From Vicugna vicugna (lineage: Eukaryota): DNA of 64,000 nt. The stretch spans positions 1,240,001 through 1,304,000 of the forward strand of contig MU058059.1 of assembly GCA_013265495.1 (NCBI GenBank). Direction: 5' to 3'. This document shows, in pieces, positions 4,456 through 54,290 of this stretch (positions within the stretch are counted from its first letter, which is position 1; every line of letters begins with the position of its first letter). The notes beneath the pieces are model-generated. The model was not told where the DNA came from, did no database searches, and worked only from the letters and a program-made list of their open reading frames with translations. Position numbers and translations under genes: made by a program.

Positions 4456-6430
<1,975 letters not shown>

Positions 6431-21194: not shown

Positions 21195-23140
21195 CCACAC
21201 ATCCAGAATTGATACTGAACGAACCTGGCTCAAAACTTCACACCTTAAGATGTAATCTAAAGTAGATTAGAGTTTAAAGTAGAATATAAAATTATAAAAT
21301 GTTTGGAAGGAAACAGGAAAAAATCTGTGGGACAGATTTGGGCTTGGTTAAGAGTTCTTAAATGTCCATAATCCATACAAGAAAAAATAATCAATAAATT
21401 AGACATCATCAAAATTAAAATATTTTGCTCTGTGAAAGATTGATCCTGCTAAGAGTATGAAAGAAATAAGCTACAGGCTGGGAGAAAATATTTGTAAACT
21501 ATGTATCTGACAAAGGACTCATATGTGTAATATATAAAGAATTCTCAATAATCAACAGTTAAAAAGACAATCCACTTAGAAAATAGGCAATAGACATGAG
21601 CAGATATTTCACCAGAGAGGATGTCTGAATGACAAAAAAGCCCAAAAAAGATGTTCAACATCACTAGCCGTTAGAAAAATGCTAATTAAGACTATGGTAA
21701 ACTATCACTACATTTCTACTAGAACCACTGAAATTAAAAAAAAAAAAAAGACAATACCCAATGCTTGTGGTGATGAGAAGAACTGGGATCTCTTACAGAT
21801 TGCTGCTGTGACTGTCCAAGGGTATATAGTCACTCTTTTTTTAATTGAAGTATAGTCAGTTAAAATGTGTCAATCTCTTGAGTACAGCACAGTGTCCCAG
21901 TCATGCGTATACATACATGTTTATTTTCATATTTTTCCATTAAAGGTTATTACAAGATATTGAACATAATTTCCTGTGTTATACAAAAGAAACTTTTTAA
22001 AAATTATTTTTTATATATAGTAGCTAACATTTGTAAATCTCAAACTGCCAAATTTATCCTTTCCCTCCTCCCTTCCCCGGTAATGATAAGATTGTTTACT
22101 ATGTCTGCCAGCCTTTTTCTATTTTGTAGATGAGTTCATGGTGTCCTTTTCTTTTTATATTCCACATATGAGTGATATCATATGGTGTTTTTCCTTCTCT
22201 TTCTGGCTTACTTCACTTAGAATGATGATCTCTAGCTCCATCCATGTTGCTGCAAATGGCATTATTTTACTCTTTGTTATGGCAGAGTAGTATTCCATTG
22301 TATAAATATACCACAACTTCTTTATCCAGTCATCTGTCAGTGGACATTTAGGTTGCTTCCATGTCTCGGGTGTTGTATATAGTGCTGCTCTGAACATTGG
22401 GATGCATGTATCTTTTCGCATTAGACTTTCAATGGGTATAGTCACTCTTAAAATTATTTAGTGGCTTTAAAAAAATTAATACTCTTTTAACATATGACCC
22501 AGCACTTCACAAATCTGGGCATTTATCCCAGAGAAATAAAAACTTAAATCCACACAAAAACATGTATATAATTGTTTGCAACAGCTTTATATGCAATAGC
22601 CCCAAATTGGAAACAACAGTGTCCCTCCATAGGTAAATGGCTAAACAGACCACAGTACAGCCACACCATGGAAGATTACTCAGCAACAAAAAGGAACAAC
22701 TTTTCATAGATGCAACAACTGGGATGGGTCATTATGCTGAGAGGAAAGAGCCAATCTCAAAACAGTTCCTATTGTGTAATCCGTTCTGTAACATGCTCTG
22801 AAATGCCAGGATTATAGAGATGGAAAACAGATTAGTTAGTGGTTGTTAGGGGTTGTGGATGGTGGTCAGGGGTCAGGAAGGTGGGGGGCGGGGAGCTGTG
22901 TGTAAAGTGGGAGAGCAAGGGAGATCTTTGTGGTGATTAACTAGTTATTGCACCTCGATTGCAGTGACACAGCTCTACACATACATCATACCAGTGTCAA
23001 TTTCCTGGTTTTGATGTACTGCAGTTATGTAAGACATAACACCTGGGAAATACAGGGTGAAAGGTACATGGGACCTCTCTGAACTATCTTTGCAGCTTCC
23101 TGTGAATCCATAATTATTTTAAAATAAAAAGTTTAGAAAA
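21195..23140 (+). mobile_element. Old L1MC-like element (ORF2 3' part and 3'UTR), interrupted by the L1 at 21838-22436
   Basis: catcaaaattaaaatattttgctctgtgaaaga, gggagaaaatatttgtaaac; resumes after the TSD with catatgacccagca... and ends tgtgaatccataattattttaaaataaaaagttt. Confidence 0.75.
21838..22436 (-). mobile_element. 5'-truncated lineage L1 (ORF2 C-terminus and 3'UTR) inserted into an older L1
   Basis: ORF 22155-22445 is the ORF2 C-terminus (WKQPKCPLTDDWIKKLWYIYTMEYYSA); 13-bp TSD tatagtcactctt at 21825-21837 and 22437-22449. Confidence 0.88.
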
Positions 23141-28985: not shown

Positions 28986-29244
28986 TGAACTGGTTTACTA
29001 AACGCCCCTTCTGCTCCCTGGCACAGCTGTTCTGGCCAGTCACACAATGTCCGGAGACACACAGTCCTTGGTGTTTATTGTTCCACTGCAAGCAGAGAAT
29101 CTGCGGAGCCCGCAGACTGTGGAAAATGCCTTAGTGTTTGTTTCCAAGAGTAGAGAAAAGGGATTTGAAACAATATGGTAGTGAATCCTTAGCAGAATTT
29201 TAAGGGGGGAGAACTTTGTTTAGGATGCCATCCCTCCTCTTTCT

Positions 29245-29939
29245 TTTTTTAAACTGAAGTATAGTTGATTTACAATGTTGTGTTAATTTCTGGTGTACGG
29301 CATAGTGATTCAGTGATGCACACACATATATAATCTTTTCCAGATTCTTTTTCACTATAGGTTATTATAAACTATTGAATACAATTCCCTATGCTGTACA
29401 GTAGGACCTTGTTGTTTATCAATTTTATATATAGTAGTTTGTATCTGCTAATCCCAAACTCTTAATTTACCCCTTCCTCCTCCCTTTCCCCTTTGGTAAC
29501 CATAAGTTTGTTTTCTATCTCTGTGAGTCTGTTTCTGTTTTGTAAATAAGTTCATTTGTGTCATTCTTTCAGATTCTGCATATAAGTGATACATAATACT
29601 TGTCTTTCTCTGTCTGACTTCACTTAGTACGGTAATCTCTAGGTCCATCCATGTTGCTGCAAATGGCATTATTTCATTCTTTTTTATGGCTGAGTAGTAT
29701 TCCATTGCATAAATGTATCACATCTTCTTTATCCAGTCATCTGTCGATGGACATTTAGGTTGCTTCCGTGTCTTGGCTGTTGTAAATAGTGCTGCTTTGA
29801 ACATCAGGGTGCATGTGTCTTTTTGAATTAAGAGTTTCCTCCAGATTGTGCCCAGGAGTGGGACCACTGGATCAATCATATAGTAACTCTATTTTTAGTT
29901 TTTTAAAGAACCTGCATACTGTTCTCCATAGTGGTCTCA
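29245..29939 (-). mobile_element. 5'-truncated L1 3' end (artiodactyl-type)
   Basis: ORF2 C-terminus MEYYSAIKKNEIMPFAATWMDLE; TSD cctctttct at 29236-29244 and 29940-29948. Confidence 0.88.
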
Positions 29940-37963: not shown

Positions 37964-40795
37964 ATTGAGGACACCCCTGAATTTCACATCTGTTTAGCAA
38001 GACAATTGAAAAAGTGGCTGTGAGAACATAAACCTTTCAGGAATTCACAGGTTTCTTGGCTTTACGTGTCCACAGGGAGTTTAGCCTAATCTGACAGTTC
38101 CTAAGAGTCTGGGAGGCCACAGCGACGCCTGGGTTATGACTCCTTAGAAGCTTCCAGGGGCTTGTGGGCCGGAAGAAGTAGTGAAGGACTCACTTTAGTG
38201 CATTCTTAATGATGGAAGTTGCTGGTGATATTTAACTGGGAAGTCATAGCTTTTCTCATACTGTCTTATGCCTCTTTATTTGAAGGACAGACTTCAGTGC
38301 TGCACACCAACACTGGGACACTTTTCATTAGAGTTTTACTAAATTCCTACCTAGGCACATGCTCGGGGATGACAGAAACAAATCTAGTTTCGCTGAAGAA
38401 AATTCCCTAAGGTGTGATGGGACAGTGGTTTCCCAAACGTTTGGGAAATAACAGTAAGTACTGAGCAGAGAGGTGTTTGTCTTTCAAAACGTTATTGGAG
38501 TTTTTGGGGCTATGCCAAACTCACAGTGGTAGAAAAGGCAGCTACAACAGATGTGAAGTCATCATATTTTAAGTCTGATGCAATTTATTCCACACAGCAC
38601 ATTTTTATTTAAGTGGGAAAAAATAGTTTTGAAGTAATTTAGTTAAAGAGTATTCCCTGGGGCAGCACCTGAAAATAACAGAACTCAGGTATACGAGAAG
38701 CGGGAGAGGGACTTCATTTGGGCTTTAGTCTGAATTTCTATTTGCAAGTTATTGTGGTTCTTTATTAAGCCAGCCAGTTGGCTTGAGGCTTGTCATGTCT
38801 CCAGTTCTCAATGACTTTATTTCATATACATTTCATATATTTTAAATGTGCCCTTTGAACACATTATTATGAAATGTTATATGAGAATGTCAATCTCCCA
38901 ATAAAAAGAGAAGACGGTTTCAGTTTTGTGTCTGAGAAGATGACTCAGTGACTTGGAGAGAAATCTACTGCTCAAACAAATGTAGTTAGGGAGCAGAGGC
39001 TGCAGTGACATCTCCTATCCTCTGGGAAGAAATCATTCTCTTTCCTGTAGGATACAGTGACAGTTATAGGAGTCTGTACCACATTCTGGAAATGGGCAGA
39101 AATATGTAGCTGGCAGGTTAGCTTTCAAAGGGACCACCACCTGTGTGGAGAGGGAAGCTTCCGTGTTGGTTGGAGTCTGAAATGAGTCCTCACTATCTGT
39201 CAACACTGAAGATTAGAGAAGGCTGTCGCTTTATCAAACCTGACAGTGCAACTTTCTGGAAATTCGCCTCTAGCAAAGTAGCACCTAAGTGGTGATGGGG
39301 AAACTTTTTAAGAGGAAGGGGGTGGAGGCAGTGATGAGATCTGCCATGTCTCCCCTCCCCCGACTCCTCCTCTTGTGTCTTTCCCTTCCCCCTAGTTAGT
39401 TCCATTTTCCATGATTAACTGGACACCCCCCCCACCCCATTCTCTGGGCACACACACTTACTCAGCCTAGGAAACTCCAGAGAATTCCTAAAAGCTCTAT
39501 TCAGTTTGAAACTCCCTCTGTCCAGTACCCACGGAGCCTTAGGTTAAAGCCGCAAGATTGCAAAAAAATGCAAAACTCATTCCAGACCAGTTGCCACTCT
39601 CCACTGGAGCAGGTCAGTGATTTCTCAGGGACAGGTCTGCATTTGTCTGGACAGCATGATATGGCCACCAATGAGTCACACAAACAGCTTGTCTGTGGTT
39701 TGTAAAGGACAGTGTGGATAGTTTACGGGCTTGGAATTGACCCTTCTGCCAGCTTCATCGCCCTCACCATCGTCACGTGGGATCCTACACTTTTTTTTTT
39801 CTTCTCAGAGACTTCAAAGGCCCTAAAAGGGACCACTAGTGTGGAGAAGGAAGCTGGCGTGTTTGTTGAGATTTGAAATGAATCGTCATTATCAACATTG
39901 AACATTAAGGTACATTGCTGCTTTATTAAACCTGACAGTGCAATGAAAATGAAGAAAGCAGCAAGTTCTTTGCCTCCCTGGAGTATGGTGAATGTTATCA
40001 ACGTGCTTTTTTAGAAGTTTGTTGCAAATAAATGCCTCTGGGCTTCAGATATTTGTAAGGATAATTTGTATTTATCGAAAACCTACCATATGTCTGATAC
40101 GCTGCTTGGCATTTGGTATACTTGAACTTTGAAGATCATTGAATCCTTCCTAAGGATTGATCTACTGCCTGCACTTAACAGACGAGAAAATTGCAGCTCA
40201 AGGATGCTGGGTCAGGCCACCAGTAGACACCCAACCAGGTGGTTTTGCGCCATAATCTGGTCTTTCCATCGTATGAAGTTTCCCTCTTTATGCGAGAAGG
40301 AAAAACTGTGGGACAATCATTTGCCACCAGTCGGGGCAAGGTGGGGGTAGGACTTTGTTTTGCTGTAGGTCAGTAATTGGCCTAATAGGAAATGAAATGG
40401 AGAGGAGAACATTTGCTTCTCCAGATGGAAAAATGTTACCAGTTTATTTAATAGTTTTGCAAGTGATTTGGCTCAGAGAGTACATAGTGAGATCTCCAGA
40501 ATTAAAGATAGAAGTGAAATGTCAAACTGACAGGGATAAACCATGGCAAGATCTCATGAGGTTTCTTGAGCGGGTAGAGAAATAGCAAATGAGCTCTTGC
40601 GTGGGCAAGTGTAAGGCGGTATATTCAGGGAAAATAATGCAAGCTTTACTTGTGCTACCTCTTGTTTTCCATACAGAAAAAGAAGTTTAGAATCAATGTA
40701 AAATAGTATAAAATACACACTAGTCCATATTTTGGAAGATGTTTTAGATCTGTTATTTTCTGACGTTCATAAGGTAGCAGGGAGCAAAAGCAATT

Positions 40796-43713
40796 TTTTT
40801 TACATTTTTTTGTATTGAGTAATAGTTATTTTACCATGTTGTGTCAAATTCTAGTGTAGAGCACAGTTTTTCAGTTATACATGAATATATATTCATTCTA
40901 TTTTTTTTCACTATGAGCTACCACAAGATCTTGTATATATTTCCCTGTGCTATACAGTATAATCTTGTTTATCTATTCTGCATTTTAACATCCCAGTCTG
41001 TCCCTTTCCCCCCCCCGCCCCCTTGGCAACCACAAGTTTGTATTCTATGTCTATGAGTCTGTTTCTGTTGTGTATTTCTTTTTCTTTTTTTTTTTTTAGA
41101 TTCCTCATATGAGCGATCTCATATGGTATTTTTCTTTCTCTTTCTGGCTTACTTCAGTTAGAATGACATTCTCCAGGGACATCCATGTTGTTGCAAATAG
41201 CGTTATGTTGTCGGTTTTTGTGGCTGAATAGTATTCCGTTGTATAAATATACCACATCCTTATCCAGTCATCTGTTGATGGACATTTAGGCTGTTTCCAT
41301 GTCTTGGCTATTGTAAATAGTGCTGCTATGAACATTGGGGTGCAGGTGTCATTTTGAAGTAGGGTTCCTTCTGGATATATGCCCAGGAGTGGGATTCCCG
41401 GGTCGTATGGTAAGTCTGTTCCTAGTCTTTTGAGGAATCTCCATGCTGTTCTCCACAATGGCTTTCCTTGCCTCCTTCCCTCTCCCACTTTTAATGATTT
41501 CGATGTCGTCTTTTACAATTTTGTGTTTATTCTTTTTGTAATTCATGGCAGTTATCTCCTTTCCAGTTATGAGTTTCTCATTTTTGTAGCATCCTGCTTC
41601 TTTTCTAGAGTAGACCTGTCAGTATGTCTTTTAGCATGGGTTTAGTGCTAAATCCTTCTTAGTTTTTGCTTGTCTGTGAAGTTCTTTATCTCTCCTATTC
41701 TAAAGGATAGCCTTGCTGGATAGAGTATCCTAGGCTGCATCTTTTTTTCATTCAGGACTGTGAATATATTTTGCCACTCCCTTCTGGCCTGTAGTGTTTG
41801 TGTAGAGAAATCAGCTGAGAGCCTTATGGGGGGGGGTTCCCTTGTAACTCACTCTTTGTTTTTCTCTTGCTGCCTTTAGGATCATTTCTTTATCCTTGAC
41901 TCTGGCCATCTTGATTATGATATGTCTTGATGTGGGTCTCTTTGGGTTCTTCCTGTTTGGGACCCTCTGAGCCTCCTGTACTTGGATATCTGATTCCTTT
42001 AGGTTTGGGAAGTTTTCAGTCATGATTTCTTCAAATGCCTCTTCAATCCCCTTTGTTCTTTCTTCCCCTTTTGGAACCCCTATTATGCGTAGATTGGCGT
42101 GCTTTGTATTATCCCATAGGTCCCTTATATTGTTTTCATTGTTCTTTGTTCTTCTCTCAGCTGTTCTGATTGGGTGCTTCCTGTTGTCCTGTCTTCTAGG
42201 TCACTTATTCGTTCCTCTGCATTATCTAGCCTGCTTTGTACAGCCTTTAAGTCAGCTCTCATCTCAGCAAGTGAGTTTACTAATTCTACTTGGTTCTTCT
42301 TTATAGCTTCTATTTTGTTTTTGACATATTTTATATCTCCAAACACTATTTCTTTTAGTTCCTTCAGTACTTTGATCACTCCTTTTTTGAAATCTCGATC
42401 TTGTAGGCCATCAATGTCTATTTCCTTGATCGTGCTTTCAGGGGATTTCTCTTGATCTTTTAATTGGGAGTGGTTCCTCTGCTTCTTCATATTGCTCACA
42501 TCTCTCTGGCACTGTGGCTTAAGAAGTATCAGTTATCTAGTTCTCCTGGAGACAGTGTGCTCTTAATGATTTTATTGAGAGGTCTTTGTGTCTTCGCCCT
42601 GTTTTGCGAACTCAGCTTGCTGTTTCCAGAGGCCCTTTGTTGGCACCCTCGTCTGTGCTGCTCCCAGTGGCTGTCAGCTAGCAGATAACACCCCCTCCCA
42701 GCACCGTGGTCAGGTGCTGTGTTCCTGCTGGAAAGGCGGGGAGCCACCCGCCGTCTCCTGGTGCCAGTCACTCTGCGGCTACATGCAGCTGCTGCTCCGC
42801 CTTGGGTGAGCACTCCAAAGGCAGGCTCCTGAAAGATCGCAGAACAGCCCCGCCCCTGCTCCATGCCAAATCTCAGCTTGTTAGTCTTGGTGGCGCGAGT
42901 TCTCTGAGGTGCCAGGGCAGAAAGATCCTGTCTGCCTTGGGCTGTAAACAAGTCTCAGTCCTGCCCAGGAGGTTGCGGAGCCCGGGGTGCAGATTCAGGT
43001 CCAGCCCCGCCCCCGCCCGGGTGCTGCACACAGGAGGAGATGGCGGCTGTGGCTGCCACCTCTCTTCTTGCGAGAAGTGCCAGTAATGGTGCCATGGGTC
43101 TGAGGAGACAAAGGCAACGGCGCCCCTCCCTTCAGGGGACACCAGCTGTGTTGCTTTGCTTTTTTTGCAATTTATAGGGGACTGAGGTGGTTCTGCTCCT
43201 TATCCCCTCCCAGCCACGGCGTGTAGCCCGCTGCAGTCCCCGGGGCTGCCTCAGTGCAGCCACCCAAGTCCTCCACCCGGCTCAGGCGGCCTGTCCCGGC
43301 CCCCAGCTGCTGGCTTGCATCTCGGGCTGGGTGTTGCGGGGACCCTCTGTGCCCGTTTAACTCAGTTCTGTCAGTCACGGGGTGCTCCAGGCAGATCCGA
43401 GCCTCGGAGGGTCCCCCTCCGTACCACTGGCCTCTTCGTTGGAGAGGGGAGACCCAGCAAACGAGCGCCAGCCCTCCTTTGCCGTTCCCTTCCCGCGGGA
43501 CCAGTCCTGCACTGTTTTGCTTTTTCTTCTTTCTTTTCTCCTTTTCTCCTACCAGATTTTTGGCGTCTTTGTCTTTCGAAGAGGGCGATGTTCTGTCGGA
43601 GTTGCGCAGGTTCTCTGGTTGGCTGAGTGGGTCCATAGATGTGAGTTTTGGTGTATTTGGGGGAGAGGGTGAGCTACAAGCATCCTTCTACTTCGCCATC
43701 TTGCTTCTCTCTC
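40796..43713 (-). mobile_element. Internally deleted LINE-1: 5'UTR + disrupted ORF1 + ORF2 C-terminus + 3'UTR + polyA
   Basis: 5' end GAGAGAGAAGCAAGATGGCG (YY1-type motif at 43694-43703), CpG-rich ~1.2-kb 5'UTR, ORF1 from 42499, ORF2 C-terminal peptide PLWRTAWRFLKRL...KQPKCPS, A-rich tail, 7-bp TSD agcaatt at 40789-40795 and 43714-43720. Confidence 0.9.
41605..42499 (-). pseudogene. L1 ORF1p remnant with frameshifts
   Basis: Segments MSNMKKQRNHSQLKDQEKSPE...SRLDNAEERISDLEDR (coiled coil) and MTENFPNL...QEAQRVP...RHIIIKM (RRM region), ending GLL* with TAG at 41605-41607; split across frames. Confidence 0.85.
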
Positions 43714-43720
43714 AGCAATT

Positions 43721-44215
43721 GTTAATAATATCATTTTACAGGGAAAATAAAGACCTAGATGGCTGCAGTGACTTTCCAAGGTCACTCTGGTAGTTCATAA
43801 GTGAACTCTAACTAGAAACCAGCACCACAGAACCCCAGCCCACACCCTTCCTCCTCGGGTTCTTGGGAAGGCTCACAAAGCCAGAAATGTCAGATTGTTG
43901 TCAAAAGACGTCATCTTCTCCTGTAATGTCAGGTTATCATCAGGAGATGTCATCTTATCCTTACCATATCAAGGTCAGGAGCTCTGGCTTCGGAGACGGA
44001 TGTACCTGGATTCTCTATTCATTTCAGTCCTTGCCAGAATATATGTCCCAGATTATTTAAGCTGCAGAGAGTGTTTTTTAGTTCTTGTATAAAATAGAGA
44101 TGAGAGTAGCATCTGCCTCATAGAAGTGGTTTAAGAAATTAAATGAGGTAAGAGATGACGATACCTGACACAATGCCTGGCACCTAGGTATTAAATGAAC
44201 ATTCATTTTTGCTGT
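43721..44215. mobile_element. Two MIR fragments (~43721-43850 minus; ~44085-44215 plus)
   Basis: cattttacagggaaaataaagac...gtgactttccaaggtcac; gtataaaatagagatga...aattaaatgagg...tgcctggcacctagg. Confidence 0.65.
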
Positions 44216-44949
44216 GGTCAGTGGACAGGAAGGTGCTGTAAATTCTCGCTTGAGGTACTCTTGAGGATCCCAGCACACAGCAATGATGGATGGAAAAAGA
44301 AGAAAAAAGGTGAATGACCACAGCTGGCTGAACAGTCACTGTCAGCTCCCTTGGACCAGAAATGCAACAACAGTGCAACCGGAGGTTAGACCAGAGGCAT
44401 GGGCCTGTGGGGGCCTCCAGGATGGGAAGCAGGCAGGGGGAGGGGCAGGGTGGCTCCTGCAGGAGAACGAAGACTGAAGCCACCTTCTTGAGCCGGGTGG
44501 AGCCTGGCACTGGTACTAAGGGCGGTACTAAGCCATCCCTTATGAGAGGAAGCTGTGGAAAACTGCTCTCAACAAGCTAGTGCTTCAGGAAAGGTATAAA
44601 CCAGGGAGCACAGAGACAGTGGGGCAAGGAGGCACCCCATGAAACCTCATATTGCCCGGAAGGCTGAAGCAGGGATCACTGCACTGAACTGGAGATCTGA
44701 GTAATAAGACAAGACCCAAGCCTGGGCCGTAGGTGCTGGCAGGTGGAGGGCAGCCCACGACTTACAGACTGGGGGTCCCCAGCACAGAGGGAGGGAGAAT
44801 AAACACAGGACAGACAGCCGAATCCAGCACCTCAGAACCATCCTGCAGATCTGTTGGCTTCAAAAGTTTTTTGGTTGGAAAATGCACAAAGACATTGGAA
44901 GCTAAGAAGGGAAACAAAATCGATAGTGAACGTGAATTAAGTCCAGGAG

Positions 44950-53588: not shown

Positions 53589-54290
53589 ACAGAGAATGTT
53601 TCTCTAGTTTCTCTTCTAGGAGGTTTATCGTGTCTTGTATTGTAAGTCTTTAAGCCATTTTGAGTTGATTTTTGTGTGTGGAATGAGGGAGTGTTCTAGC
53701 TTCACTGACTTGCATGCTGCTGTCCAGTTTTCCCAGCACCACTTGCTGAAGAGACTGTCTTTTCTCCATTGTATATTCCTGCCTCCTTTGTTGAAGTTTA
53801 ATTGACTGCAGGTCCATGGGTTCATTTCTGGGCGCTCTGTCCTGCTCCACTGTGCCGGTGCCGTGCTGCTTTGCTTACTGGGAGGGCTGTCCTTCCAGCT
53901 TTGTCCTTTTTTTCAGTGTTGCTTTGGCGATTCTGGGTCTTTTGTGATTCCATATACATTTTAGGATTAGTTCTAGTTTTGTCAAAAAAGCGGGCAATTT
54001 GATAGGGATCTCATTAAATCTATAGATTGCTTTGGGTAGTATGGCCATTTTAACAAAATTAATTCTTCTAATCCAAGAGCATGGGCTATCCTCCCATTTC
54101 TTTGAATCATCTTCAGTTTCCCTCATCAGTATTTTATAATTCTCAGCATGTATGTCTTTCACCTCCTTGGTCAGGTTTATTCCTAAGTATTTAATTTTTT
54201 GATGTTATTTTAAAAGAGATTTTTTTAAAACTTCCCCTGATACTTCATTGTTAAAGAAATACAACAGATTTCTATATGTGAATCTTACAA
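53589..54290 (-). mobile_element. Internal L1 ORF2 fragment (post-RT region)
   Basis: Peptides ENYKILMRE...[31 protein letters not shown] and QWRKDSLFSKWCWENW...PHTKINSKWLKDL are L1 ORF2. Confidence 0.88.

Follow-up and report, generated by a model that had tools for sequence, protein, structure and literature searches.

A decayed 2.9-kb camelid LINE-1 copy lacking the endonuclease and reverse transcriptase, and its possible origins

Introduction

Half-L1 (HAL1) elements are non-autonomous L1 derivatives described as encoding only ORF1p (PMC5753468). The element reported here, from Vicugna vicugna, resembles them in having ORF1 without a functional ORF2, an L1 5'UTR, an L1-type 3' end and a length of ~3 kb, but its ORF1 is itself broken and, whereas HAL1s are multi-copy families, it is known here from one copy. 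It also differs from pig HAL1_SSc, in which, judged by eye from supplement 1 of PMC6501411, the inter-ORF spacer gives way to unrelated AT-rich DNA with no ORF2 remnant.

Two further systems invite comparison. The human SpIREs, as presented in PMC5860796, are internally deleted L1s that, like our element, carry a target site duplication (TSD) and a tail and have a junction that follows an AG. However, SpIREs use donors in the 5'UTR and have a damaged promoter and a retained ORF2, whereas the element keeps promoter and ORF1 and loses ORF2. SpIREs are described as dead ends. TRE5-A.2 of Dictyostelium, a functional analogue, shares with the element, in the description of PMC3159450, an ORF1 and both ends alongside a large deletion of ORF2, but it belongs to an unrelated host and clade, and it has been shown to move in trans, which for the element is only a possibility.

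Compared with the ordinary camelid LINE-1, the element has the same 5'UTR, 300-codon ORF1, spacer, ORF2 C-terminus (81–88%), 3'UTR, A-tail and TSD, but lacks an estimated ~3.7–3.85 kb that includes the endonuclease, the reverse transcriptase (RT) and the zinc knuckle, and its ORF1 is broken. The best reading of this arrangement, to which we assign a probability of about 0.5, is a one-off, non-spliced internal deletion of a full-length camelid L1.

Results and discussion

Structure of the element

The window, that is, the whole 64-kb stretch of DNA analysed, was read directly. An earlier note on this DNA had described an L1 without endonuclease and RT but with both ends and a 7-bp TSD, and this was borne out: a 2,918-bp L1-derived element lies on the minus strand at window 43713–40796, with ORF1, a 143-nt spacer, 121 ORF2 codons and an exact AATTGCT repeat at its ends. 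Its parts, in 5' to 3' order, are:

43714–43720, minus strand: 5' TSD, AATTGCT; can be lengthened to 43723 at the cost of one mismatch, giving an endonuclease-like site, TT/AA[A/C]A
42500–43713, minus strand: L1 5'UTR, 1,214 bp, with CAAGATGGCG at 43703–43694; from composition and alignment to L003
41605–42499, minus strand: ORF1, dead; from PF02994 and comparison with P0124 and P0126
41462–41604, minus strand: start of the inter-ORF spacer (143 nt); alignable with the spacers of full-length non-camelid L1s until 2 nt before the junction
41461–41462, minus strand: deletion junction, with ~3.7–3.85 kb of the parent L1 probably missing, a size based on pig lengths
41096–41461, minus strand: last 121 ORF2 codons and stop, beginning just past the zinc knuckle; from dromedary ORF2 homology
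40796–41095, minus strand: 3'UTR and decayed poly(A) tail; aligns to other L1 3' ends in the window
40789–40795, minus strand: 3' TSD, AATTGCT, an exact match to the 5' copy

The short L1 layout, with both ends and an abrupt internal junction, is confirmed as a real structure. On the minus strand the element begins with GAGAGAGAAGCAAGATGGCG, and within its 5'UTR lies CAAGATGGCG, which we take to be a YY1 site. This 5' end is 74% identical over 80 nt to that of a mammalian L1 (L003). A CpG-rich 5'UTR of ~1.2 kb had been proposed; its extent and enrichment hold (1,214 bp, GC 58.5%), but its CpG observed/expected ratio of 0.46, against 0.14 in ORF1 and 0.36 in the window, shows that the enrichment has decayed. 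At the other extremity, the ORF2 stop (41098–41096) is followed by 300 nt of 3'UTR and A-rich tail; this 3' end aligns at 72–73% identity with those of five further L1s elsewhere in the window.

The two TSD copies are identical over 7 bp and agree at 9 of 10 positions when extended, and the extended target site resembles the L1 endonuclease target (consensus as given in PMC5860796). Full-length L1s in human and chimpanzee are reported to have TSDs with a peak at 14–16 bp (PMC2912911); that of the element is short, yet within range. Together, the TSD, the A-tail and the endonuclease-like site indicate an ordinary L1 insertion. The preserved TSD tells us that the insertion was a single unit bounded by these ends, and nothing more; it is silent on whether the middle vanished before, during or after integration. 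The suggestion that the preserved ends and TSD point to mobilisation of the short form in trans thus does not follow, since deletion during or after the integration of a full-length L1 leaves the same ends and TSD.

We rejected the reading of the element as a 3' fragment nested within an older L1: what follows the tail is not spacer, and the 3' TSD copy has its partner at the 5' end. The flanks (43714–43790 and 40740–40788) resemble the two halves of an ancient MIR that the L1 insertion would have split; elsewhere in the window they match over just 25 bp. When the empty site was compared with the window by BLAST, no other repeat copy matched it continuously.

As for the surroundings, the window contains a single long coding exon with Pfam domain DUF2371 (4456–6318, minus strand), presumably TMEM200C; the element lies ~35 kb upstream of it on the same strand, with a GC-rich island (9–10.5 kb) in between. 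Other L1 pieces include a young-looking 3' fragment (21822–22424, minus strand) with a TSD of ~15 bases, set inside an older L1 fragment of opposite strand, and an isolated ORF2 fragment (53590–54280, minus strand) that spans the RT-to-C-terminal region and has no obvious 3' end.

ORF1 and the ORF2 remnant

The ORF1 announced at 42499–41605 is indeed there: its Pfam PF02994 score of 82.6 bits, against a cut-off of 22.4, places an L1 RRM domain in it. Over ungapped segments, 227 of 268 residues are identical to an intact 300-aa ORF1 of camelid type (P0124) and 208 of 237 to a second ORF1 (P0126), with the RRM piece reaching 89% against P0124, and we regard it as an ordinary camelid L1 ORF1. It is not, however, intact. 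Its first codon is GTG and, with P0124 as reference, the frame shifts at three places (near 42146, 41831 and 41655) and a single codon is lost at each of two others (near 41998 and 41695). With these frameshifts and this first codon, the element is, by its sequence, a dead copy.

The ORF2 remnant comprises 121 codons and has no frameshift; one codon is missing in frame, and an internal stop lies close to its end. Its five best matches are dromedary L1 ORF2 proteins at 80–87% (KAB1262767.1 is among the closest), which places the element in the camelid L1 lineage; against 11 dromedary ORF2 proteins it ranges from 81% to 88% identity. Homology to these proteins begins exactly at 41462/41461, where an abrupt jump to the last ~120 ORF2 codons had been noted, and where the minus strand reads ...GGCAAGGAAAG on the left side and CCATTGTGG on the right. 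Judged from the dromedary proteins, the parental ORF2 reads ...HCWWECSLVQPLW around the breakpoint, which falls four codons past the last cysteine of a stretch that we take, from established knowledge, to be the zinc knuckle. Because the breakpoint lies beyond the knuckle, endonuclease, RT and knuckle are all absent, and the mere 143 nt between the ORF1 stop and the remnant have no room for an ORF2 that encodes endonuclease and RT. Pig L1s are reported to have spacers of 390–529 bp and an ORF2 of ~3.8 kb (PMC6501411); by analogy with these lengths, the missing segment would measure ~3.7–3.85 kb and the parent L1 ~6.6–6.8 kb.

One copy or many?

The element may instead belong to a multi-copy non-autonomous family, HAL1-like or TRE5-A.2-like, in which a shortened L1 was copied to many sites by the ORF2p of full-length L1s and the junction goes back to a single deletion or to recurrent splicing. 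We hold this to be possible, though we lean away from it. The element retains everything that such copying needs (a complete 5'UTR, ORF1, 3'UTR and tail), HAL1s are reported to have arisen several times in mammals (PMC5753468), and pig HAL1_SSc, at 3,016 bp, is of similar length. In addition, by our reasoning, a random window would more readily contain one of a few hundred family members than a unique deletion. Yet pig HAL1_SSc appears by eye to have no ORF2 remnant, and the element has one in an undrifted state, next to an ORF1 of ordinary camelid L1 type.

The state of the remnant can be given in figures. Its mean identity to the 11 dromedary pieces is 84.2%, and those pieces are 87.3% identical among themselves, a value to which a single 90% cluster contributes eight of the 11; with the four cluster representatives alone, the remnant is 81–88% identical to them and they are 80–87% identical to one another. 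Indels number five in the 895 nt of ORF1 versus one in the 363 nt of the remnant. As the remnant is undrifted and ORF1 has more lesions, nothing suggests that the remnant ever drifted while ORF1 was being maintained. This comparison, made on one copy, speaks mildly against a long non-autonomous history of the HAL1 type; a family whose expansion followed shortly after the deletion would likewise show an undrifted ORF2 remnant.

Searches for a second copy of the junction returned none. In the window, the junction pattern at up to three mismatches matched only the element itself, and it had no match in viral contigs. For a spacer-frame peptide, 0 of 270 pattern matches were confirmed in metagenome contigs and 0 of 141 in GTDB contigs. 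A protein search with a junction-spanning 65-aa frame gave one match, on the ordinary ORF2 side only, while an 89-aa junction frame searched against 1.84 billion representatives gave 79 matches, 78 on the ORF2 side only, one on the spacer side only and none on both. ORF1 scans of metagenome and GTDB contigs found 20 and three loci, respectively; their DNA identity did not exceed 76.6%, and none was camelid-like. Viral contigs and plasmids yielded nothing of use. Because the collections searched yielded no camelid L1 DNA and are almost free of camelid DNA, this lack of a second junction copy is weak evidence against a family.

Mammalian L1 ORF1 was seen in bacterial genome or MAG records (L022, L023, L024 and P0238, labelled Streptococcus, Clostridiales, Nocardia and Delftia), most likely as host contamination.

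Among 24 listed sequencing-run rows, 14 (from nine studies and three organisms) hold 0.69–0.71 of the words of window 39000–44700, and two RNA rows hold 0.29–0.30; these shares are no test of orthology, since the flanks alone give 0.49 and paralogues ~97% alike explain the rest. Our literature search did not bring up a camelid ORF1-only L1 with the same junction, and Repbase or Dfam may catalogue one. The text of PMC8605555, in the part consulted, has no mention of HAL1, ORF1 or ORF2, and its supplements may list camelid L1 families. For the dromedary, 326 L1s with both ORFs and 677 with only ORF1 intact have been reported, which are not counts of HAL1s (PMC5203782).

The junction: splice or deletion

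The junction follows an AG, and the earlier note was right both in reporting this and in keeping splicing and microhomology open. Our comparison of the breakpoints used non-camelid L1 DNA only (L012, L025, L014/L018/L019, L002 and the pig consensuses). On the right side, L012 reads ...GATACAG up to the breakpoint and CCACTATGG beyond it, so that exactly two bases (AG) are common with the left side of the element. A rodent-like L1 (L025) has CAA at the equivalent ORF2 site, and the pig consensuses in the supplement of PMC6501411 give 30 string matches to CAG versus 12 to CAA. The parental camelid L1 thus probably had CAG here, as judged from these relatives. On the left side, the spacers of L014, L018 and L019 (probably one locus from several samples) align until two bases from the junction and then read TAGATTC, and that of L002 aligns to within six bases. 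In the pig spacers, the 30 motif matches read by eye, of 31 in total, have the form G-T-A/T-A-G-G/A-A..., with a T-run within ~10 bases (PMC6501411).

These data bear on whether the element is a lone or rare spliced integrant, in which two cryptic splice sites, a donor in the spacer and an acceptor (CAG/CC) late in ORF2, were joined and the RNA was then copied in trans, without founding a family. The AG before the junction and the CAG of L012 and of most pig matches would suit an acceptor, although its tract is poor, with pyrimidines at only six of the 20 bases that precede the CAG in L012. As for the donor, no GT immediately follows the junction in any of the three simplest alignments of the last 13 spacer bases, made with 30 of the pig spacers (PMC6501411) and with L014/L018/L019/L002. 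A donor-like motif does occur nearby: 15 of the 30 pig spacers, of the youngest type, carry GGAG/GTAAAT or GGAA/GTAAAT near the equivalent position. One simple alignment pairs a donor-like motif with GGAG/GCAAG, ~10 nt upstream of the junction and retained in the element, and one extra 2-base indel in the A-run would bring a pig-type GTAAAT donor to the junction. Spliced integrants are reported to make up ~2% of full-length human L1PA1–6 (PMC5860796), but the human L1 splice events in the consulted parts of PMC5860796 and PMC2896524 all start from 5'UTR donors and none removes ORF2. Moreover, an RNA without ORF2 requires mobilisation in trans. We therefore consider a lone spliced integrant very unlikely, and splicing overall, whether in such an integrant or within a family, is disfavoured.

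An assembly artefact, in which a misjoin dropped the interior of a full-length L1, would produce the same layout, and L1 interiors are, as is well established, hard to assemble. However, the window contains no N, there is no long repeat at the junction to seed a misjoin, and homology is clean on both sides, ending two bases short of the junction on the left and starting with the very first base on the right, which makes this explanation highly improbable.

We return to the one-off, non-spliced deletion, which we favour. A full-length camelid L1 of ~6.6–6.8 kb would have been inserted by ordinary target-primed reverse transcription, and a single event would have removed the ~3.7–3.85 kb that reach from the spacer to late ORF2, joining points that probably had only one or two bases in common (A or AG). 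This event may have occurred during integration, by a jump of the reverse transcriptase or by end-joining of the cDNA, or later, as a chromosomal deletion by end-joining; we consider the two timings about equally likely. The reported outcomes of L1 integration include end-joining with microhomology of at least two bases and template switching (PMC11702581, PMC2912911). Afterwards the copy would have decayed neutrally, and mobilisation in trans would not be needed.

Three observations concern the breakpoints themselves. An RNA hairpin as a stalling point at the ORF2 site was not supported in L012 (z of −1.1 for the centred 80-nt window; best neighbour −2.3 of 11). Pig-type spacers (L014:9000–9050, L002:2110–2170 and those in PMC6501411) carry GTAAG or GTAAAT, often AATAAA or ATAAAT, and a T-run, at most ~30 bases from the equivalent of the left breakpoint, and this motif-rich region is a possible RNA-processing or fragile site. 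Finally, an older, 5'-truncated L1 3' end in the window (29244–29934, minus strand), 72% identical to the element and with its own TSD (12 of 14 bases), starts within 0–7 bases of the junction's L1 position (CCACTATGG). As five L1 3' ends in the window were matched, the rough chance of such a coincidence, noticed post hoc, is a few percent, and it may be a hint of a position where breaks or stalling are favoured.

Implications

As a single deleted copy, the element is of little consequence, because rearranged L1 copies are common. If its junction were multi-copy, the element would document the birth of half-L1 families while the parent subfamily and the exact breakpoint can still be read. A 2.9-kb element of promoter plus ORF1, born by splicing or by one deletion and amplified in trans, would represent a young and separate origin of a HAL1-type family, seen at a stage when its ORF2 remnant had yet to drift, which we think somewhat unlikely. 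If, in addition to being multi-copy, the junction had GT–AG borders, it would mean that a splice that removes ORF2 can found a self-sustaining non-autonomous family.
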